In this document: in pieces, positions 13,814 through 37,639 of the stretch
Numbering within the stretch: position 1 is the first letter of the stretch
Layout: each line of letters begins with the position of its first letter
NCBI RefSeq assembly: GCF_036321535.1
Contig: NC_087436.1
Location: 26,228,001 to 26,292,000, forward strand
DNA length: 64,000 bases
Source of the DNA: Camelus dromedarius
Lineage: Eukaryota
Direction of reading: 5' to 3'
The notes under the pieces: model-generated
Seen by the model: only the letters and a program-made list of their open reading frames with translations
Database searches by the model: none
What the model was told of the DNA's origin: nothing
Program-made: the position numbers and the translations under genes

Positions 13814-15789
13814 CCCCCCAACACTTCTCCACTTTAAGGTTAACCAATGTGGTATTTATGTATCTAAACATTTGCTGTAAGTTTTCAGTGATGTTTAAAT
13901 TCTGAATTATCTTTCCATAAAGATAGTGGCATATTGGTTTGTATTTTATAGAAACCATTTATCTTTAGGTCACAAATAGGAATGTATATAATTTGCCAGT
14001 GTTACAAAGTTGATTCGAACCCTCAGCTAATCTCTTTCTTGAGAAATTGCAACCACTTGTTTAATCTTTAATGAAAATAGAGACTAAAAACAATTGCTTA
14101 AACATATCACTGTGTAAGATTCCAGTGACTAAAAAATCCCTGAAAGAGCAGTAAACCGTGATTATTGAAAAGCTCAGAACACTAGCAAGGTAAAGATTTA
14201 ACAGAAGGCCACAAACTGTGTTTTCCTAAGAGGAGCTAGGAACTATATATGCCGTTTAATAATGTTTGAAATGGCCTTGTCTAGTGTTAGTGTTGCACAG
14301 AAACCCCAAGTCACTTCTTCCTGGTCTGTTATTTTGGATAAGCTTCCACTATCATAGCATGGCCCTGCACGCCAGCTGCATAGGCAGCCACTAAGCCATA
14401 CTGGCCTGCTTCCTTCCATCATCTGTTGGCAGCTATCATGACTAGCCAGCAGCCAGTGGCTCCATACAGGTGTCCCAGGGATAATGATCCACCCCAGTTG
14501 TTAAACTTACTCAAAGGATACAATCCAACCTTGTTTTTTTCTATCCATGTAGTTTTGCACAAACCAATCAGAATCCACAGCTTTACTATTAGCCAAAATC
14601 TGACCTAAGACAGCTTCATGAAATACAAGAGCTTCAATATCATTCATTGTTAATCCTTCCTTTTCTAGCACTTTTAGAGTAGCATATGTTGGTCTGAGTA
14701 GAAGTTGATCTTTTGAATCTGGAGACAGATACACAAAATCCCTCAAATATGACTTTGACTTATATAACCCATGGTCAGAGCTTTTTCCTTTGCTATAATC
14801 AGCATTGCAGATGCAACATCAGTCAGAGAAGAAGAATTTGTAGCTGTCACTGTGCTGTAGGGCTTGATGAATGCAGGTTTTAGTTTGACCGTTTGTTCTA
14901 GGAAGGACAAATGCCACTATTTGATATTTGTATCTTTTCCTGCTTTGAAGACATACAGCATAAGAAAGGAGTCCTTCATCCTATGCCTTCTTGGCCAGGT
15001 TGTGCAAGATCAGTGTACACTCATTGTGTTCCAGTCGAGAAATAGCAAGGCAGAAGCAAGTCAGTCTGCAGAGTGATGCATAGTCTCAGTGGTGGAGAAC
15101 TTGGCCACTGTAGGGTGCTCAGATGATAGGAAATTCAATCTAAATTTAGAGATTAAAGATAGTCACTGACCTAGAGTCTTAGACTTATTGAGATTAAGGT
15201 TGATATTCCTTGAATGATAAATAGGGATGTAGGATGTTTACTCTACACCACCTGCTACGACCACATCTTACTGGCCAGAGGTAATCAAGCCAACACTCGT
15301 GGTCCTGGCTTGGTTTGCAGAAATGCAAGCCATGGTGACAATGTGAGCAAGAGTCTTGTCAGAAAGGTCAGCTCATAGGGCAGCCTTTAGCCACATTGCT
15401 TGTTTTCGTTTCCTGTACAACTGTGCCCAAAATTATATAATAAGCAACTTCCCTTGGGACATTGGTCTGATGCAGCAAATCCAGAAGTGCTTCTCTAGCT
15501 GAATCATGTGGCATCTGGTCTTTATATAAAGTACCTGACAGCAAAAAGGGAATGTGAATACCACCACCACATTCCTTATACAAGGTTTAGCCAAAGTCTT
15601 CTTGATTTGGTTTGGGTGGGTAGGGCAGCTGGTAGCTGGTAGGAACAGCTCAGAAGTCTTACAGAAAACCTGAGGGCCCATTTTGACATACTGGCAAGAT
15701 TTTCAAAGTCAAGATGGAAGTCATCTTGAAATCATCCCACCTTAGCTCACATCTGTTGAGGCTTCTGCTGTGGGCAAGGCTTGGTCCCA

Positions 15790-18056: not shown

Positions 18057-18449
18057 TTCTTTTTTTTTTTAAATTGAAGTATAGTCAGTTATAGTGTGTC
18101 AATTTCTGGTTACAGCACAATGTCCCAGTTACACATATACATACATATATTCATTTTCATATTCTTTTTCATTAAATGTTATTGCCAGGTATTGAACATA
18201 GTTCCCTGTGCTATACAGAATAAACTTTTTAAAAAACCTATTTTTATATGTAGTGGCTAACATTTATAAATCTCAGACTCCCAAATTTATCCCTTCCCAT
18301 CCCTTTCCCTGATAACCGTAAGATTGCTTACTATGTCTGTGAGTCTGTTTCTGTTTTGCAGATGAGTTCATATTGTCTGTTTTTTCTTTTCTTTTCTTTT
18401 CTTTTCTTTTCTTTTCTTTTCTTTTCTTTTCTTTTCTTTTCTTTTCTTT

Positions 18450-18525
<76 letters not shown>

Positions 18526-20283
18526 TCCTTCTTCCTTCCTTCCTTCCTTCCTTCCTTCCTTCCTTCCATCTTTCTTTCTTTCTTTTTTGAGATTCTACAT
18601 ATGAGTGATATCATGCGGTATTTTTCTTTCTCTTTCTGGCTTACTTCACTTAGAATGATGATCTCTGGGTCCATCCGTGTTGCTGCAAATGGCATTATTT
18701 TCTTCTTTTTTATGGCTGAGTAGTATTCCATTTTATAAATATCCCACAACTTCTTTATCCAGTCATCTGTCAATGGACATTTAGGTTGCTTCCGTTTTTT
18801 GGCTATTGTATATAGTGCTGCCATGAACATTGGGGTACATGTATCTTTTCAAATCAGAGTTCCCTATGGATATATACCCAGAAGAAATGGGATTGCTGTA
18901 TCATACGGTAGTTCTATTTTAAATATTTTGAGGAATTGCCATACTGTTTTCCATAATGGCTGCCCCAAACTACATTCCCACCAGCAGAATAGTAGGGTTC
19001 CCTTTTCTCCATACCCTCTCCAGCATTTATCATTCATGGACTTTTGAATGATGGCCATTCTGACTGGTGTAAAATGATACCTCATTGTAGTTTTGATTTG
19101 CATTTCTCTGACAGTTAGTGATATTGAGCATTTTTTCATGTGCCTATTGGCCATTTGAATGTCTTCACTGGAGGATTGCTTGTTTAAGTCCTCTGCCGAT
19201 TTCTGGATTGGGTTGTTTGTTTACTTTTGTTATTAAGTTGTATGAATTATTTATATATTCTGGAAATTAAGCCTTTGTCTGTCACATCATTTGCAAATAT
19301 TTTCTCCTATTCTGTAGGTTGTTGTTTTGTTTTGCTTATGGTTTCCTTTGCTGTGAAAAAGCTTATAAGTTTAATTAGATGCCATTTGTTTATTTTTGCT
19401 TTCCTTTCTATTGCCTAGGTAGACTCTCTTAGGAGAACATTGCTAAGATTATGTCAGAGAATGTTTTGCCTATATTTTCTTCTAGATTTATCATGTCCTG
19501 TCTTATATTTAAATCTTTAAGCCATTTTGAGTTTATTTTTGTGTATGGAGTGAGGGAATGTGCTATCTTCATTGATTTACATGCTGCTATCCAGTTTCCC
19601 AACACCACTTGCTGAAGAGACTGTTTTTTTTTTTTTCATTGTGTATTCTTATCTTCTTTGTCAAAGGTTAATTGACTAAGTCTGTGGGTTTATTTCTGGG
19701 CTCTCTATTCTGTTCCACTGATCTATATGTGTATTTTTATGCCAAGACCACACTCTTTTGATTACTGGAGCTCTGTAGTATTGTCTGAAGTCTGAGAGGG
19801 TTATTCCTCCAGCTTTGTTCTTTTTTTTTCAATATTGCTTTGGAAATTCTGGGTCTTTTGTGATTCCATATAAATTTTAGGATTGTTTGTTCTAGTTCTG
19901 GGTAATTTGATAGGAATCACATTTAATCTGTAGATTGCCTTGGGCAGTATGGCCATTTTAATGATATTGATTCTTCCAATCCAAGAGTGTGGGGTATCTT
20001 TCCATTTCTTTAAGTAATGCTATATATAGAAAACCCTAAAAGCTCCATGCGAAAACTATTAGAGCTGATAAAATAATTTGGCAAGGTAGCAGGATACAAG
20101 ATTAACATACAGAAATCAGTTGCATTTCTTTACACTAACAATGAATTAACAGGAAAAGAAAATAAAGAAACAATTCCTTTTAAAATTGCATCCAAAACAA
20201 TAAAATACTTAGGAATAAATCTGATCAAAGAGGTGAAAGACTTATACATGGAAAACTACAAAACGTTAATTAAGGAAATTAAA
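18057..20283 (-). mobile_element. Younger 5'-truncated LINE-1 with 5' inversion (20016-20283 on plus strand)
   Basis: Poly-T tail at ~18051-18070. ORF2 C-terminal peptides on minus ([10 protein letters not shown]...[31 protein letters not shown]). Plus-strand block encodes the immediately upstream ORF2 segment (YIENPK...YKTLIKEIK). TSD caccccttc(t/c)ttc(t/c)tt at 18041-18056 and 20284-20299. Confidence 0.93.
18380..18588. repeat. Compound pyrimidine microsatellite (TTTTC)n-(TTTC)n-(TTCC)n within the L1 3' region
   Basis: Directly visible tandem arrays. Confidence 0.98.
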
Positions 20284-21529: not shown

Positions 21530-21685
21530 GGGAGGGGCATATGGCTCAGTGGTAAAGTGTGTGCTTAGCATGCATAAGGTCTTGGGTTCAATCCATAGTA
21601 CCTCCATTAAAAAAAATACACAAGTAAATAAATAAATCTAATTACCCTTCCCCCCCCCCAAAAAAAAAGAAAAAAGAAAGGAAAA
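21530..21685 (+). mobile_element. tRNA-Ala-derived SINE (camelid Vic-1-like)
   Basis: Head with A box (tggctcagtgg), gtgcttagcatgca and B box (gggttcaatcc), then tacctccatt, an A-rich stretch, ctaattacc, a C-run and an A tail. Confidence 0.85.
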
Positions 21686-21709
21686 ATATGGTAATGAGAG
21701 TTTGAGGCT

Positions 21710-21804
21710 GGGGAGAGTAGCTCAGTGGCAGAGCACATGCTTAGCATGCATGAGGTTCTACGTTCAGTTCCCAGTACCTCCATTAACAACAACAACAACA
21801 AAAA
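21710..21804 (+). mobile_element. tRNA-Ala-derived SINE (camelid Vic-1-like), short form with (AAC)n tail
   Basis: ggggagagtagctcagtggcagagcacatgcttagcatgcatgagg...cccagtacctccatt followed by aacaacaac... Confidence 0.85.
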
Positions 21805-22880: not shown

Positions 22881-24458
22881 ATCACATCTGTGATACACAT
22901 GTATGACATAAATGAGAAATTAAAATATAGAGGATAGTATTATAACAGTATTAAAATTCTGTATTAATTTAACTTAAATTCATAGGCCAGTATTAGAATT
23001 CTGATGATCTTGGAGTTGTTGTTAAAGCAGAACTCTCCTGTGAAAAGAAATTGATTTTTACAAATGAATTTACACTAACCCTGTATCCATGAAGTTTAAC
23101 TCTTAAATGTTGTAGCAGTTTAACCATAGTCTCATTAATCTTAACTCCTGAATGCTAAATGTCCCTATTTGAGATTCCTAATCAGATAATTTTTGAAAGA
23201 GAAACTTGAAAATATCTTCTTTGTATCTGAAATCAACTCTCTGTAATTTGAATTTCCTAGTTCTCTAAAGGGCTGTTAGAACTTTATGCCTCAAAACAGA
23301 AGGATGTCATGAATACATTTTTCATTTTGAAAATATCACTTTACCCCATTGGACTAAAAAATTTTATCGTTAATGTTTTTGTTTTCAGCACCTGATGCTA
23401 GATAATTTACAATAAAACCAAATACTAGATACTTTATAATGTATAGATTGATATTTCAGATTTCAGTTATCATGGTCACTTTATTACATATCATGGTCAC
23501 TTTATTACATATACATATCCTTTATTACAAATGAAGTAGTCTTCCTTTATCTCACATCTTTTATTTGGATAAATATTTTTCTAGTAGTGCAGTAAAATAT
23601 ATAATAGCTTATCAATGATGCTATTTGTATTATAGTTGTGACTACCAGATAAGATAGGAAGAAATGCATAGGGGATATATTTCAAAATAAATAATAAAGT
23701 CATTTTTCTGTGTGTGACAAGAAGATAAAATCAAAGAGGATGCCTAATTTTTACAGCTGGAATTATAAGCACTTGTCTGCCATGAACTTCTCCAAATTCC
23801 CTTCCCAATACCATCAAATAAATCTTTCAAATATATTACTGATTTCAGAAAGAAAACATTATATTCTAGTTGAATTGCAATCAGAATATAGGCTAAATAG
23901 AATTAAGGGTCTATATCTAAACATAAACTTTATGCAAATATTTTGTAAAACCTTAGCTATGCATTCTAAATGGTTGGATTCCAAAATATTAGATTTGAAA
24001 GCTATTCATAGGTTATATTTGGTAATATTTCATGCAACTCTCTTCTGTACTCCAGGTTGAAAATTTATTTAATATGGAGAATCCTAAAAATCTTAAGCTG
24101 CTGCCCCATTATGTATTTCCCTTGTCTGTCCAACTCTAGTATTATCCTCCTGCCTGGACAGCTATAGAATAGAGCTGTGCTCACAGCACATTTTCTTGGT
24201 TGGGAGCTTCATGCTGCATTGAAGCCACAGTCTGTCAGTGAGTCTTCCAAAAACATGGGGATGTTATTGATCTGGTTTTCCTTCATGTTATCTTTCAATG
24301 CTTGATTTGAGTTGACTTTCAGTGAATCAGTGAAAAGCTTACTGCTGAGGCATGAGAATTCAGTGACAGCTTTCAGTGCTGCACCTCTTATGAAGAGATT
24401 TGGCTGCATGTAAGATACAGTTTAGTTGTCAGTCCTTAGCACGCAACTGACACCTTAA

Positions 24459-24663
24459 AATGATCCATAATCTGTTACAGGATTATTTGTGTGAGAGCTC
24501 CTACATGGACTGTACAGCCTGCTTGGATGTCAGTGTCAATGCTGTACTCTGTACATAGGCATCTAACAGTAGTGGTCTTGCAATTTAAGGGACAAAGCCT
24601 AAAAAAGTGACATTTTCAGAGAGCAAAACTATTATTAAAAATTAGGCTAAAAGAAATGGCATA
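24459..24663 (+). repeat. Direct repeat copy 1 (~190-200 bp), possible ancient LTR remnant
   Basis: Shares aatgatccataatctgttacag, tgagagctcctaca.ggactgtaca, tcagtgtcaa and aaaactattat..aaaatt with 27243-27432. Confidence 0.85.
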
Positions 24664-26650: not shown

Positions 26651-27242
26651 GTAAGGAAGATACTGACAGAACTATGTAGTAAATTATATGCTTGTTACAA
26701 ATATTACCTAGCATCCATATGCTGTCTTCATCATCCTAAAAGATAACTTGCAGCTCGAATACCTAAGGGGAGGTTGTAGTCTCAGCTCTAGGGTTGCAAT
26801 TTTTTGGTCTAAGGATAAACCAACCCCAAGAAATTAGGTCTGTCATGCAATACAATATAATTCTAGCTAATTGTGTAAAAGTACCCTTTTGCCAAATGTA
26901 AACAAGGCCCTGGTTATTTCTGGTAACCATCCTGGAAACTTGAAGAAAAACTACTTCATGAAAAGTTGACAATTTGAGAAGCAGAAAAGAAAGATACAAA
27001 GAATTTGGCTTTTAAATGATGAAATTGGGCTTATGAATGAATCTATATGAAGCCAGCACTAGCTCTGGACTTCTATCTTCTTATTTATTCTGAGTTGGGT
27101 TTGGAGTGGTGTTGGAGAATGGTACTAGAGGAGGAAACCAGTTAAAATTGCTGTTGTTTGGATTAACAGTTTGGACTACATGGTGCAAACTATTGTATTA
27201 AAGAACTTAAGCCGGTTAAGTTATAAAAACTTCATACGTTAG

Positions 27243-27432
27243 AATGATCCATAATCTGTTACAGAATTACTCACCTGAGAGCTCCTACAGGGACTGTACA
27301 ACCTGTTGGGGTCTCAGTGTCAACAATGTCCTTTGTATATAGGTATCTAACTATAAGCAGTCTTGTGATTTAGGGGACAAGCTCTAGAAAGTGGCATATT
27401 CAGAAAGAAAAACTATTATAAAAATTGGCATA
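27243..27432 (+). repeat. Direct repeat copy 2 (~190 bp), possible ancient LTR remnant
   Basis: Diverged colinear copy of 24459-24663; the first 22 nt are identical. Confidence 0.85.
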
Positions 27433-32650: not shown

Positions 32651-32972
32651 CAGTTGATTAAAATCTGTCTCTGACTCTGAACAAATTCTTTATTGTGGGA
32701 AATGGTGGAGTTAGAGGTCTCTATGACCAATACTTTGCATTAAATTCTGCCAACTAAATTTTTTCTGTACTCAGGAAAGCAAACCAGTGATGTGATGGGT
32801 CTTTGTATTTGTAATAGGAACATAACACCTTTGCAATTATACTTGAAGATTTATAATAAGAATATGTGAGGGTTATATATCCAAGATGATCAATTTTTCA
32901 AGCCATTTGTCATTTAAAAAATAATGAATACCAGAAAATTAATTTTATGGTATTATATGTTTTACCTTGGAG

Positions 32973-35496
32973 GACATTTGGTCCTGTCCAAAACACCCAT
33001 TGAGACATTTGGTCCATTTGATAATACAAACATTTAACTTCATTAAAATTTTATTTACATTATTTTTATTGCAGTTCATGATGAATTCTGGATTTCACAT
33101 TTATTCTTGTTCTTCCTCATCATGAAGTTCACCAGAATTACTCTTAAGTCAATAAGCAATTGCTCTCAGGTATATATCGATCTGATTATTGACTTTGTAT
33201 TTGTTATATGTTAACAATCTCTATAATATGAATTTTATTTTATTTGTATCATCATGAGGTTAGTGGCCTTTTTGAGTGTGACCACCAAGAATCTTATTCA
33301 TGGCTTTGCTGTTCATCTTTTAACATTTTAATAAATCTCCAAATTTAAGTATTAAGCACTACCATCAGCTTTTGAGATTTGCTATGCCAGCCTTCTGCGG
33401 CATTGTTCATCCTGTGTTTGATGTTCAGTTCTGATGTATAAACAGTCCAAGTTTCTGGTGGAAATCTTGGAGCTTCTGGTCTTCTTCTGCCTCTGCCACG
33501 CCTTCTGGGGACATACACTCTCACTGTAATCCATTAGGTCATCTAATTTTTTTTTTTTGCGTTCTCCACAATGTACACCAAAATTTCATTTATATCTTCC
33601 AAAGGCAGGCATGAAAATCCAAACAACATGGAGTTACTTTTCATTGTCATATACTCTCATGTTAGACCCCACGAAGATATTTTTTTGCCACGGTGATTTT
33701 GAAAAGTGCAACAGGCTTTCTTTTACTTGTCCATTTGGTAGGAGTAGTTGAATCACGCACAACATAATCTTGAATTTTTCCCATGCAAATGCAAATACTT
33801 TCTCATATATATCTGTGTCTTCTCACCTTTTCATTATTAGTGCATAATCACTAGTGTAATATACCCCAGTACTACACTGTGCACAGTTAATAACTGAGTG
33901 GATGATTTGAAATAACTGGTGCCATCTTGTACCACTGAGTGATGTGGTACTGACACTTATATTGAAAACTGTCATAAGCTGTGTAAATAAGAATTCTTTC
34001 GTCATCTTGAGCACTGGAGTCATACATAAGAAATAGTTCTCCACATCTGATCACTGTATACGCCTCAGGAATTTCAACCTCATGCAATGAAGTAGAGTTT
34101 GGAGGTTGATGTGTATTTTCAATTCTATTCAGGTCCCTCTTTAATGACCTCTTCATTATGAATATCATGAAAATCACAGAGAGTTCTCTAAAGTGCCTGT
34201 GGTGGCACTGCATTTGGTTTTTCTTCTGTGTGTTATTTTAACCTATTTGGGGTTTTCCTTACTTCCTCTTTAACACCAGCATTATGCTGATGTTTTCCTG
34301 TCCCGTCTTGAATAGTTGGAAAGTTATCCAAATCCTGACTAGTTACATATCTGACATTGCAGGATCTCCACTCGTAGTGCTGGTACCTTTTAATCCTATT
34401 TTTGTTAAAGGAATGAAATGTTAAGAAAAACCATAATAACATTGCACTTTTTTTTTTTAAACTTTTTGTGAGTATACTGTTTCTGCCATATTCAACCAAT
34501 AATTTTCAAATGAAGATGTCATATTGCCAAGCAACAAAATAAGGGTTATTTTTTTTTCTTTTGTAGCCATCTGACCAATGGTCACTGATTTGCTGGTAGA
34601 GGAAATCTTATTAATATCCTATGGATTCAACGCCCTGTTTAGCCACTCTGGATCAACCAGTAGTTAGACACCAGCTGAGGCCCTCCTGGTCCATACTGAT
34701 TGGCAGGTAAGTGCGCGCATCACACTCATTAAAACCTCTCTATGCTTCTTGAGATTTACTTCAGTTGTACCTCTATAGGAAATCAATTCAAGGAAAACAT
34801 TGCCCATTAACCCTGGGCAGTAGGATAGTTGGTGGGGGGTTAATCAGATGCTGGTATACTCCTCATGGTGAACATTACACTGACAAGTGAGATACTTTGT
34901 AAAGTGTTTATATCAACACATTCACCACCTGTTTTACACAGTAGTCTGCACAGTAGTCTGACCAAGTTCTTCCTTTCAAAGTCTGCCCTTATTGAATGAC
35001 CTAGCCACATTCAACCAAGTGTTCAGTGACATATTAATGCACCATGTATAATAAGATTCTATCCTTGATTTGTTATTTTCTATGCATTTCACTAACTGTA
35101 GGACTCTTCCTCAGTAATCATAGTTAATGTAACTTCTGCTTTTCTGCAAGATTCAAACCCCAACCCATCTCCCTAACTCCTTGTCCCATTATTAGCTAGG
35201 CTGCCAAGGTGAGAAGGGTTTTTATTGGCAATACAACCATAACATAGTTATAAGATCAATAAAATATGGTAATATTTTTATGTATTAATCTCATAAACCA
35301 AAAGTATAAATAAACATATGGACTATTTGAACCCAGGGACATTTTCTAAACAGAGATGTTTTTGACAGGACCAATATCAAGGACCATTTGTCATGGATAA
35401 ATTATGCTCATGGATATTTTTGAAATGACCAAATTTCAAGGATCTTTTGGCGTGGACCAAATGTTTCCATGGGTGTTTAGAATAGGACCATATGTC
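32973..35496 (-). mobile_element. Mutator-superfamily (FLYWCH+MULE, Phantom-like) DNA transposon fossil with TIRs
   Basis: Inverted repeats 32973-33016 and 35453-35496 match at 38/44. Repeated ggaccaaatgt-like subterminal motifs at 35320-35525. Internal decayed transposase. Confidence 0.88.
33101..34522 (-). pseudogene. Decayed MULE transposase with N-terminal FLYWCH-like domain
   Basis: Manual translation across frameshifts gives ...YSQK...HYEWRSC...HQH (FLYWCH-like); IPEAY...GELFLMYDS...DERILIY; LFQIIH; YALIMKR..IYEKVF; LLHFSKSPWQK; PRFPPETWTVY...RMNNAAEGWHSK (33384-33413, equivalent to the RTNNxxEGWH catalytic-E motif); IWRFIKMLKDEQ; YLRAIAY. Confidence 0.85.
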
Positions 35497-37639
35497 TGCT
35501 AGTCCATATTCTATGGTTCAAATGCTATATCTTATAGTAGTATGTTATTTTTACTTAGACAGATGTGATATGTGTGTGCTAATTTAATGTACAAGTTATA
35601 AAAATTAGGCCATATGGAAAAACACAATTGTCAGGTACAGCACTCTATCTGTGATGCCTTCTAATTACCACAGCATCTTTACCATAAGAACTAAAACAAA
35701 TGGAATTTCACATGTTCTCACAATTCATGCAAATAATATATCACCACCATGTTTTAAGATTTCATCATATAGACCCAGGAAACCGAATTAACTTTCATAA
35801 GTTTATGTAGTAAGTAAATAGGTCAGCTGATGAATGTGTGGCTCTTCAAAAGATTGAGTGACTTTATTTACATCAAAAATGTATATGTACACAACCTTAG
35901 CACTTTTAAAGTTTACAGACAGAATTAAATTTAATGGAAGTGTATATCACCAATCTCTGGCTGAATTGTGTAAAGTTAAAAATCTATTCATACCAGCAGC
36001 AGTGCCATCAAAAATAGTCATCATTACTTAAATTGTGACAGTCTTTGTCAAATACTATTGCTTTTGGCTGGACATTCTGCTGCTACTACAGTATATTAAA
36101 CAGATACAGCCACCCCACCCCCGCCTTACTACCACAGCTTTTTTTTTTTTTTTTTTTGTAATGTGGCTGATATGCACTCATCTCTGCATTTGATTTTCTA
36201 TATTTTTCCTACATTATATTCCATTTCTTTTTTTTTTGCCTTCTGTTAAAAAAAAAGTAATTTTTATTTTTGAACCTCTACTATGTAAATTTTTAACATG
36301 TTTTCAATAGGATTTGAAGCAAAGTACATCAATTTGCATTTTTTATTTATTCCAGATAAGTTATACTCCTATTAGCCAAGTAGTTTCCAATATGTGCTTT
36401 TCCTATCATCTGTTCCAATAACTGGGGGGGGGGGGGGGAATGTTTAATGGCTAATGATATACATGTGTTAGTATGTCTTTAAGATACTCTGTCACTTTGA
36501 TGGGCTCAGTGCTTCTGACATAATCATCTAGCTGTTGAAATTTAATTTTAAAATTTGAGGGATAGTGGCAAAATCTGCAAAAGCTGTGAGAAATATTTTG
36601 AGGTTGAATTGAATTGCATACACTATTCCGAATTACCTTGATGTCTACTTTAAAAAAAAATTCCCTTTGATTCCAGTTGTAAAATCTAGTAAACTAAAAT
36701 TGAGACTATTTTCTTGGAAAGGTAATGGTGTTAATGCATTTATAGGTCATATGTCTTGTTCAGAGTGCTTGAGTAACTTCTGTAGGTTTGTAGCACTTCA
36801 TGTGGAAGGACTCAGAACATACTGCATATGTTGTTTACATTGCAGCCTTCAAGCACTTTGACCACCTAAAGTAATAAAAATGTTGGATAATTTATTATTG
36901 CCATTAAGAATGTAGAATACTTTTTGGTTAAAAATAAGAGCATCTAGTTAAAAAGTGAATATTCCAAAATAAATCCAAAAAAATAAAGTTTCAAATTCAC
37001 ATTGTTAATAACATCAATTTAAAGCTAGAAATATGAAAGTCAAAATAATGTTTACATTTTTTCTTTGTTTTTAGTCTACACATCTTAAAATTTAAAACTA
37101 CATTGGCAGACAAAAATCCAACAAGGTTGGTGAAAATGATAAAATATCTGCAACGTATATAAAATCATTGAGATTATAACTTTTCCTGTCTAGGTATTCC
37201 ATGACTTAGGAATAAATAACCTACCTACTTTGCTTATATTTGAACGTACAGTGAGGAAGAGTGGTCTAAGGTGGTAATTCCTGAGGGTAACTCACCTTCC
37301 CCATAGCTCTCGTTGGGGAAGTATCCCTCCTACAGTGAGGAGAACCAGGGCTGCTCTCATGGACCTTAAATTCCAAAAGTATGATTGTTGCTTTTCATCA
37401 AAACATGGAGACTTTTCAGATTGTGGTAAGTTGTGTACCTATTATTTCTCAGACTGCTTTAGTATCCTATAAAGGCACACTGAAAAATCAGTCTGCCTCA
37501 AAACAAGCAAACAAATCACAATGACAATAACTTCTGGGGTCAGAATATCTATAACAGAGTCACTGATAGTTACTAAGTGTTTCTATACAGTCCATACCAA
37601 GTGCCAACTCAATACCAAGTCCTGTCTTGGGGTTGGGGG

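Follow-up and report, generated by a model that had tools for sequence, protein, structure and literature searches.

The Phantom group of Mutator transposons, to which Muta1 of Aedes (3.2 kb; PMC5499845) belongs, is group 20 of Dupeyron et al. 2019 (PMC6446971); the similar Tm1-A (2.5 kb) has been described from Meloidogyne (PMC3169594). These elements carry a single gene of ∼460–500 codons encoding an N-terminal FLYWCH domain and a MULE DDE transposase with a conserved tryptophan, and their terminal inverted repeats (TIRs) combine a terminal motif with subterminal repeats, the two ends being unequal. The hosts of group 20 are flatworms, arthropods, tunicates and an ichnovirus. Among placental mammals, Ricksha, Ricksha_0 and Ricksha_a are old DNA transposons classified as Mutator, human MULE-MuDR fossils have already been counted by RepeatMasker-based work (PMC9004415), and a horse Phantom was published in 2010 by Marquez & Pritham, as cited in Dupeyron et al. 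(PMC6446971).

In a 64,000-nucleotide stretch of the dromedary genome (the window) we find an element that shares the single gene, the domain order and the TIR build of the Phantom group. It spans 32960–35506 (∼2.55 kb), about the size of Tm1-A and smaller than Muta1, and it is almost certainly a Phantom-type Mutator DNA transposon that was once autonomous and is now dead. In contrast to the group 20 elements its host is a mammal, and the copy is dead with its second catalytic aspartate deleted.

An inverted repeat of 44 nt with 38 identities, reported previously in the first-pass annotation, pairs 32973–33016 with 35453–35496 and has a chance expectation of ∼1e-6 in the whole 64-kb window. 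Gapped local alignment of both ends gave these 44 bp only, or ∼55 bp with the terminal bases. The TIRs are composed of repeated GACATTTGGTCC-type motifs, and the inner part of the element is the transposase pseudogene on the minus strand. The left (3′) terminus and TIR (32960–33016) comprise the core at 32973–33016, with two GACATTTGGTCC motifs 31 bp apart that are exact copies of the 11-mer core motif, and a first base probably within 32960–32965. The right (5′) TIR (35453–35506) comprises the core at 35453–35496 and terminal bases to about 35505–35506. The motif array noted earlier at this end was recovered: four copies (35381, 35426, 35454 and 35485) lie within two mismatches of the 11-mer core, which is expected by chance 0.25 times per 200 bp at three mismatches. 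The 5′ subterminal array (35320–35452) holds at least three further decayed units, and an extra 18-nt unit at 35357–35374 is 94% identical to the left end.

The element had originally been placed at 32973–35525. The element is real, but its true ends are probably 32960–35506, because related intact elements stop, with GGTT, 8 nt outside the GACAT motif (7 of 8 displayed ends) and the weak motif at 35515–35525 falls outside the candidate target-site duplication; a right end at 35525 was rejected. The terminal motif, with at most one mismatch, was seen at 6 of 29 loci coding for related transposases in metagenome contigs. The candidate duplication, a 9-bp feature considered alongside those of the Phantom group, consists of TATTATATG at 32951–32959 and TATTCTATG at 35507–35515, which match at 8/9 positions; Mutator-like elements make duplications of 8–10 bp. 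With a chance of 12.7% across all scanned boundaries, and of 0.8% in a narrow range picked post hoc, this match is no more than suggestive of a genuine target-site duplication.

The pseudogene (∼1.39 kb, minus strand) runs from an ATG at 34489 to a final stop near 33101, both of which were located, and frameshift-aware alignment required no intron. Its reading as a ∼1.4-kb decayed transposase with the MULE blocks in order was confirmed by alignment to the Trichuris suis transposase P0177 (M514_08442), in which 222 of 440 aligned residues were identical (50.5%), interrupted by 10 stops and 11 frameshifts. The two align from end to end, finger and C-terminus included. A second T. suis protein, P0151 (KFD47203.1), matched the pseudogene with a tblastn E value of 1e-39.

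Of the conserved MULE residues, the first D, W and E are intact and the second D is deleted. The first D had been described as mutated, which was incorrect: D-G-T (GAT-GGC-ACC) stands at 33926–33918, its codons directly following a frameshift. Loss of the DFE block was rightly recognized and reflects a deletion of ∼10 codons near 33756; the interval 33706–33760 takes in this site and the C-x-x-H motif that follows. In that motif, which is intact in the T. suis transposases, the H is kept (33708) and the C is replaced by S. Both the PRFPPETW and NNAAEGWH blocks are present as claimed, with the conserved W at 33449–33447 and the catalytic E (EGWH) at 33395–33393, within 33384–33449. Carrying 21 breaks and lacking the second D, the camel copy is unable to move itself. 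The FLYWCH zinc finger, previously called readable, is a relic at 34284–34430 (minus strand), corresponding in the alignment to the PF04500 region of P0177; it has kept its second C (34361) and H-x-H (34292, 34286) and lost its W and first C. When 642 six-frame pieces of the window were scanned with an HMM of non-Trichuris homologs, this relic was the single match.

The MULE or FLYWCH HMM match by which the first-pass annotation had proposed to check its classification was not obtained with Pfam: none of the six raw frames matched Pfam, seven pieces gave no MULE or FLYWCH match, and word-index protein searches with window pieces returned nothing at E≤1e-3. Classification is based on homologs and on our own HMMs from 24 non-Trichuris relatives. 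On raw frames these HMMs detected the FLYWCH region (iE 0.0015), the linker (1e-17) and the C-terminal part (5e-29), and the MULE-core HMM had no match. Homologs of the pseudogene with PF04500 and PF10551, together with relatives that have the terminal motif, support the Mutator/Phantom class even though the direct Pfam match failed. The Phantom assignment appears supported at the level of FLYWCH-MULE homologs and foldback-type TIRs.

Upstream of the gene lies a non-coding 5′ interior of ∼830 bp (34490–35320, minus strand), which may be leader, captured or inserted sequence. It has no Pfam or Rfam match and no similar stretch elsewhere within the window, and none of 248 proteins matched it credibly (seven weak matches, per-query E 0.006–0.02). 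Rfam matches in the window were limited to two tRNA-like sequences, both outside the element. The copy is CpG-depleted (o/e 0.18) and sits among LINE-1 and SINE relics, an ordinary dead repeat without sign of function. At least 95% of the words of a stretch including both junctions occur in 20 sequencing runs of one organism from 8 studies, 7 of which runs are possibly the source of the window. All 24 rows of matching runs came from one organism and hence give no cross-species evidence.

Among 114 short protein matches, 28 had the window or Trichuris, and no other long protein, as their closest relative. These decayed fragments look like sister copies of the camel element. They are about 70–76% like their own majority, with a median of 52% to each other (251 pairs), which is the star pattern of neutral decay. 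Some also resemble the window out of frame, fragment P0006 reaching 51% over 63 residues; for T. suis P0177 the value was 23% over 136. The fragment majority (120 columns) was 72–76% like three T. suis transposases, a figure that is inflated and partly circular because resemblance to the window or Trichuris was how the fragments were chosen, and 42–55% like 15 non-Trichuris proteins. Judged from these sequences, the element very probably belongs to a multi-copy family, and the 28 fragments make the earlier description of a low-copy family doubtful.

A decay simulation returned 11% from protein identity and 15–22% from the stop count, and the TIR divergence is 7.5% (CI 2.7–17%). At a rate of 2–2.5e-9 per site per year, the decay simulation and the TIR divergence would place the spread of the family roughly 50–90 My ago.

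Such an age and multi-copy pattern are typical of families that curators usually catch. We put at slightly below even the chance that a curated family already includes this copy. The candidates are the autonomous partner of Ricksha/Ricksha_0, a further MULE-MuDR entry of Dfam and the 2010 horse Phantom. Human MULE-MuDR protein fossils are known in number (437, 374 of them annotated before; PMC9004415), and PMC6446971 cites an earlier report of a horse MULE with its FLYWCH alignment. However, Dupeyron et al. state that neither the horse sequence nor the Repbase vertebrate MuDR entries yielded a MULE transposase to their search (PMC6446971), whereas a consensus of the present family would be ∼75% like an intact transposase. 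Human entries of this type in Repbase are limited to RICKSHA, RICKSHA_0 and Ricksha_a (PMC5753468). The Ricksha TIRs measure 79 bp (PMC1431705) against a 44-bp core here (∼55 bp with terminal bases), a weak argument since decay or lost inner repeats can shorten a TIR. Ricksha also carries ERVL/MLT2B sequence; the camel interior is mostly transposase, and its ∼830-bp 5′ part, which has no Pfam or Rfam match, may or may not hold such a segment. The termini of the camel element presumably differ from those of Ricksha as well. If a curated family did prove to match, only the whipworm link described below would be new, and the explanation we favour would still be compatible with it.

Of 397 matches at E≤1e-3 in a phmmer search of 1.84 billion representatives, the strongest to a named, intact protein was to T. 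suis P0003 (KHJ40130.1; E 8e-25). When the window DNA was compared with a panel of 13 proteins, identity was 47–50.5% for the T. suis transposases (which also include P0179, M514_09469), 37–42% for a diverged Trichuris pair (T. suis P0180 and T. trichiura P0012, CDW58273.1) and 31.5–37.5% for eight non-Trichuris proteins. By this measure the nearest intact transposases are those of T. suis, one of the whipworms, which live in the guts of mammals. The T. suis and T. trichiura proteins are annotated only as hypothetical or domain-containing, and their comparison with the camel copy was made at the protein level. P0177 and P0151 lack ∼9 residues before PPxFPP that are present in the camel copy, in P0180/P0012 and in the outgroups.

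In a careful 17-row tree, for which the window was translated along a non-Trichuris guide, it grouped with five Trichuris rows at 100/100 (stem 0.44–0.51), and forcing it beside the nearest non-Trichuris rows was rejected (p-AU 1.7e-10). A quick 46-row tree recovered the same grouping with an SH-aLRT of 100. The tree is incongruent with host phylogeny, as it places a mammalian copy in one group with Trichuris at 100/100. Within the group, the free tree left the window outside the five Trichuris rows, without support (56/0), and nesting inside Trichuris was not rejected (p-AU 0.39). The window row is long (1.06) and of odd composition. T. suis holds several intact, divergent transposase copies on contigs of 111–407 kb, and the P0180/P0012 pair (69% identical; stem 0.63) is common to T. 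suis and T. trichiura; the transposase lineage is therefore resident in whipworms. The first-pass annotation had suggested horizontal transfer without reference to Trichuris, and that suggestion now gains specific support: on the sequence evidence, a horizontal link with the Trichuris clade is probable.

Two trivial explanations of this link were rejected as highly improbable. Contamination would mean that the T. suis assemblies contain pig DNA or that the camel window contains worm DNA; T. suis does live in a mammal, and nematode contamination of a mammalian assembly is documented (PMC6542046). However, the worm genes are intact, mutually divergent and spread over contigs from 111 kb up to 2.8 Mb in three locus-tag series. 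The camel copy is heavily decayed and CpG-depleted, lies among LINE-1 and SINE relics, and has junctions found in runs of 8 studies. Vertical descent from the nematode–vertebrate common ancestor, for which we found no specific support, is equally improbable. DNA transposons evolve neutrally in vertebrate genomes, as stated in PMC7070016, so identities of 50% (decayed copy) and ∼75% (majority) cannot outlast >550 My. In addition, human MULE-MuDR fossils are never pre-amniote (PMC9004415), and none of the 18 organism-named relatives (among 74 matches) is a vertebrate.

The closeness to whipworms could also be an effect of sampling, if a third, unsampled lineage (an arthropod, a virus or another parasite) had supplied mammals and whipworms separately. 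The tree is a trichotomy without nesting, the next relatives beyond Trichuris include whitefly and thrips, Phantoms are present in an ichnovirus (PMC6446971), and the fragment majority differs from T. suis by ∼25% at the protein level, all of which suits such a history. We nevertheless regard it as less likely than not: no third-party protein fell within the window–Trichuris clade among the 45 (quick) and 16 (careful) treed homologs, and a clear gap separates the 72–76% to T. suis from the next values of 55% or less. Two scans of viral contigs found no relatives, and the Trichuris copies and their deeply diverged pair point to long residence in the worms. In other collections, GTDB genomes gave no relatives, metagenome contigs contained 29 loci with more distant relatives, none of which matched the element by blastn at E≤1e-3, and the ESM Atlas matches of P0177 were generic arthropod FLYWCH-MULE clusters.

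A transfer in the opposite direction, with an active mammalian family entering an ancestral whipworm and remaining active there, would agree with the unsupported position of the window outside the Trichuris rows. It seems distinctly improbable, as the remaining named relatives are all invertebrate or fungal and vertebrates have few other MULE transposases (PMC6446971). The P0180/P0012 stem suggests an older worm history, although relaxed constraint or a new function could lengthen it. Worm-to-mammal transfer is somewhat more likely than the reverse.

The explanation that we consider likely overall is a dead, multi-copy Phantom-type MULE linked to whipworms by horizontal transfer. The family would have multiplied roughly 50–90 My ago in an ancestor of a camelid-like host, an early placental or laurasiatherian, and its copies, of which the camel element is one of many, would then have decayed neutrally; horizontal transfer would join the family to the whipworm lineage, either directly or via an unsampled partner. 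A direct worm–mammal jump has about an even chance. More tentative is the fuller version, in which a still uncurated Phantom/Mutator family jumped directly from the whipworm lineage to early placental mammals ∼50–90 My ago, leaving intact copies in whipworms together with a conserved, possibly domesticated gene (P0180/P0012).

Transposons shared by mammals and parasites are known from RTE1_Sar (strongylid nematodes and shrew), AviRTE, bandit and SPIN/OC1, as summarised in PMC6542046. Those cases involve other superfamilies and other parasites, and the present event is older, with a far more decayed mammalian copy. The terms MULE, MuDR and Mutator do not occur in PMC6542046, nor in the main text of PMC10162687 and bioRxiv 10.1101/2022.12.28.522108, whose supplements may list such a family, and ‘Trichuris’ is absent from the three supplements of Dupeyron et al. 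that were searched (PMC6446971). Our literature search found no paper linking Trichuris or whipworms to a MULE transposase or to Mutator transfer, and on that search the whipworm link of a mammalian Mutator element is new here.

The camel copy provides transposase-level evidence of a MULE in at least one mammal. According to PMC7070016, mammals and birds are involved in <3% of vertebrate transfers, and the whipworm relationship gives a concrete candidate for a parasite–host transfer, rare in mammals, that could date a parasite–host association. If the direct whipworm jump is true, a MULE in a vertebrate genome would have been shown at the transposase level with a named parasite donor, and the element would provide a molecular timestamp for the association of whipworms with mammals.

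The element is a real, dead Phantom-type Mutator transposon. Its terminal inverted repeats (TIRs) at 32973-33016 and 35453-35496 match at 38 of 44 nt, the same count as in the first-pass annotation, with a chance expectation in the window of ∼1e-6. Each TIR is made up of a GACATTTGGTCC-type motif in copies 31 bp apart, and decayed units continue inward from the right TIR to ∼35320, bearing out the motif array claimed for that end. Among 29 loci from metagenomes that encode related transposases, 6 have the motif with at most one mismatch, and GGTT lies 8 nt outside the terminal motif in seven of the eight ends displayed for such loci. Because three of these loci agree up to a common GGTT end and differ beyond it, we take GGTT as the true terminus. 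This would place the window element probably at ∼32960-32965 to 35505-35506 instead of the 32973-35525 first proposed. A direct repeat, 8/9 identical, lies on either side of 32960-35506; since such repeats arose by chance at a level of 12.7% in equally wide scans and 0.8% in narrow scans chosen post hoc, it is only suggestive of a target-site duplication (TSD).

Among the metagenome contigs, L009:13-2114 and L007:488-2664 are apparently complete Phantom-type elements with long FLYWCH-MULE frames, both TIRs of which begin GGTT/GATT-nnnn-GACA; no TSD was seen around the L009 element. A 293-bp MITE-like element with 52-nt inverted repeats (92%) adjoins the end of a Phantom-type element at L006:973-1265.

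Between the two TIRs lies a transposase pseudogene on the minus strand (ATG at 34489, stop at ∼33101), in keeping with the decayed ∼1.4-kb transposase described earlier; frameshift-aware alignment counted 10 stops and 11 frameshifts. A direct Pfam search for MULE and FLYWCH, the check proposed at first pass, recognised neither in any single raw frame. When one frame read through its stops served as phmmer query, 397 relatives were returned, and a Pfam scan of 21 of them found PF10551 (MULE) in 18 and also PF04500 (FLYWCH) in 10. Profile HMMs made from 24 relatives, Trichuris excluded, matched the window in order as FLYWCH finger (iE 0.0015), linker (1e-17) and C-terminal part (5e-29) and nowhere else in it, and the corresponding MULE core HMM had no match in its raw frames. 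Phantom is defined by FLYWCH plus MULE (PMC3169594), the combination found in 10 of the 21 relatives scanned. The Mutator/Phantom assignment stands on the homologues and the profile matches, although a direct Pfam match is absent. Judged by sequence, the element would work like a Phantom element, in the way established for Muta1, and shares the Phantom features tested; the 8/9 repeat is a candidate TSD.

The first catalytic D, previously thought to lie in a mutated region, is intact. The second D is gone together with ∼ten codons, which agrees with the reported deletion of the DFE block. The C of the C-x-x-H is lost, and the conserved W and catalytic E are still present. Upstream of the ATG, ∼830 bp of non-coding sequence without explanation (34490-35320) separate it from the 5′ motif array, far more than the ∼330 bp that L009, a complete relative, has at this point. 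This interior contains a 12-bp tandem duplication (34937-34960); could it be captured or inserted sequence?

The best named intact phmmer match, among the matches listed, came from the whipworm Trichuris suis. A search with the T. suis protein returned 74 proteins, 18 with a named organism: nine were Trichuris and the others came from whitefly, thrips, aphid, shrimp, a plant nematode and two fungi, with no vertebrate among these 18. When window DNA was compared with each protein by frameshift-aware alignment, three T. suis transposases reached 50.5%, 48.5% and 47% identity, the diverged pair P0180 (T. suis) and P0012 (T. trichiura, CDW58273.1) 42% and 37%, and eight non-Trichuris proteins 31.5-37.5%. 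Two trees were built. The quick one, of 46 rows, combined the window with the 42 best BLAST matches of 340-530 aa to the T. suis transposase P0177 and three named but distant rows; for the careful one, 17 rows were hand-selected from these and the window was translated with a non-Trichuris guide. Both united the window with five Trichuris rows (SH-aLRT 100 in the quick tree; 100/100 in the careful tree), and a constraint placing it with the nearest non-Trichuris rows was rejected (p-AU 1.7e-10). Nesting within Trichuris was not recovered (56/0), yet that constraint was not rejected (p-AU 0.39); the window row has a long branch and a composition flag in the careful tree.

P0180 and P0012, 69% identical, derive from this clade of transposases. 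The DGTF context and the H of C-x-x-H are missing from each, and P0012 is without the catalytic E as well; the pair is a candidate for a FLYWCH gene domesticated in whipworms. Four Frankliniella fusca members of the MULE-transposase cluster (P0035, P0172-P0174) carry mistaken NCBI annotations: alanine-tRNA ligase, ribonuclease J or proteasome nucleotidase. P0075 joins a MULE C-terminal piece to a C2H2 zinc-finger array and P0202 a DDE-1 piece to a T. suis MULE C-terminus, either as gene-prediction chimeras or as real fusions.

The element is very probably a member of a family and not a lone copy. The 150 phmmer matches listed, of 397, included 114 short non-Trichuris proteins, 28 of which resembled the window or Trichuris more than they did any of the other long proteins. 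These 28 are broken reading frames with a median pairwise identity of 52% (251 pairs), each mostly 60-80% identical to their majority sequence, and cast doubt on the low copy number first suggested. A few also match the window out of frame, which points to kinship at the DNA level. Several of the 18 looked up have near-identical variants on dozens of contigs, as would fixed pseudogene loci in commonly sequenced hosts, and we infer a mammalian origin for the 28. Over 120 C-terminal columns the majority was 77% identical to the window and 72-76% to T. suis transposases; for the diverged pair, whose first member served as anchor, the values were 68% and 58%, and 15 other proteins gave 42-55%. As the fragments were chosen by similarity to the window or Trichuris, these identities are partly circular and weigh less than the trees and the identity panel.

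The closeness to whipworm genes cannot reflect vertical descent, because DNA transposons evolve neutrally in vertebrate genomes (PMC7070016). Contamination in either direction is unlikely: the worm copies are intact, divergent and on long contigs, and the mammalian copy is decayed and CpG-poor. The stretch with both junctions was found in 20 sequencing runs of one organism from eight studies, seven of the runs being possible sources. The ancient horizontal transfer suggested at first pass has gained support from the trees, and a transfer connecting the mammalian and whipworm lineages is the best reading and quite probable. A direct jump between them has about an even chance. Worm-to-mammal transfer is somewhat favoured by the invertebrate surroundings of the clade and by the deep pair within Trichuris. 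In simulated neutral decay, 77% protein identity corresponded to ∼11% DNA divergence and 10 stops to 15-22%; the TIR pair gave 7.5% per copy (CI 2.7-17%). With a rate of 2-2.5e-9 per site per year, the element would be roughly 50-90 My old.

Elsewhere in the window, a decayed, apparently intronless thiolase pseudogene (∼14340-15600, minus strand; Pfam Thiolase_N E 5e-19, Thiolase_C E 8e-11) resembles HADHB. A LINE-1 3′ end (∼18060-19600, minus strand), with a ∼200-bp GAAA/GAAAA microsatellite within its 3′ part, is one we take to be a camelid repeat. Two neighbouring tRNA-Ala-like repeats with A-rich tails (21534-21605 and 21709-21783; 73% alike) resemble the tRNA-derived SINE of camelids. Direct repeats 2784 bp apart (24452-24640 and 27236-27424; 77-82% identical) are either LTR-like or a local duplication, and six-frame Pfam searches between them found no match.

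MULE fossils in mammals are not unknown, since Frith's count for human is 437 protein fossils of MULE-MuDR type, of which 374 had been annotated before (PMC9004415). The human entries of this kind in Repbase are all Ricksha ones according to PMC5753468; Ricksha has 79-bp TIRs (PMC1431705) against the 44-nt repeat of the element, though decay could shorten a TIR. Further nematode-mammal transfers, of other elements, are treated in PMC6542046. The main texts of PMC10162687 and bioRxiv 10.1101/2022.12.28.522108 gave no match to Mutator, MuDR or MULE, and openly accessible literature yielded no paper that ties a mammalian MULE to Trichuris. The chance that the element is already catalogued as a repeat is slightly less than even. 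Dupeyron et al. describe an earlier report of a horse Phantom whose transposase was not displayed, detected no MULE transposase among the Repbase entries for vertebrates and treat vertebrate MULEs as an open question (PMC6446971). The value of the element lies in its supported kinship with whipworm transposases and in its bearing on vertebrate MULEs.
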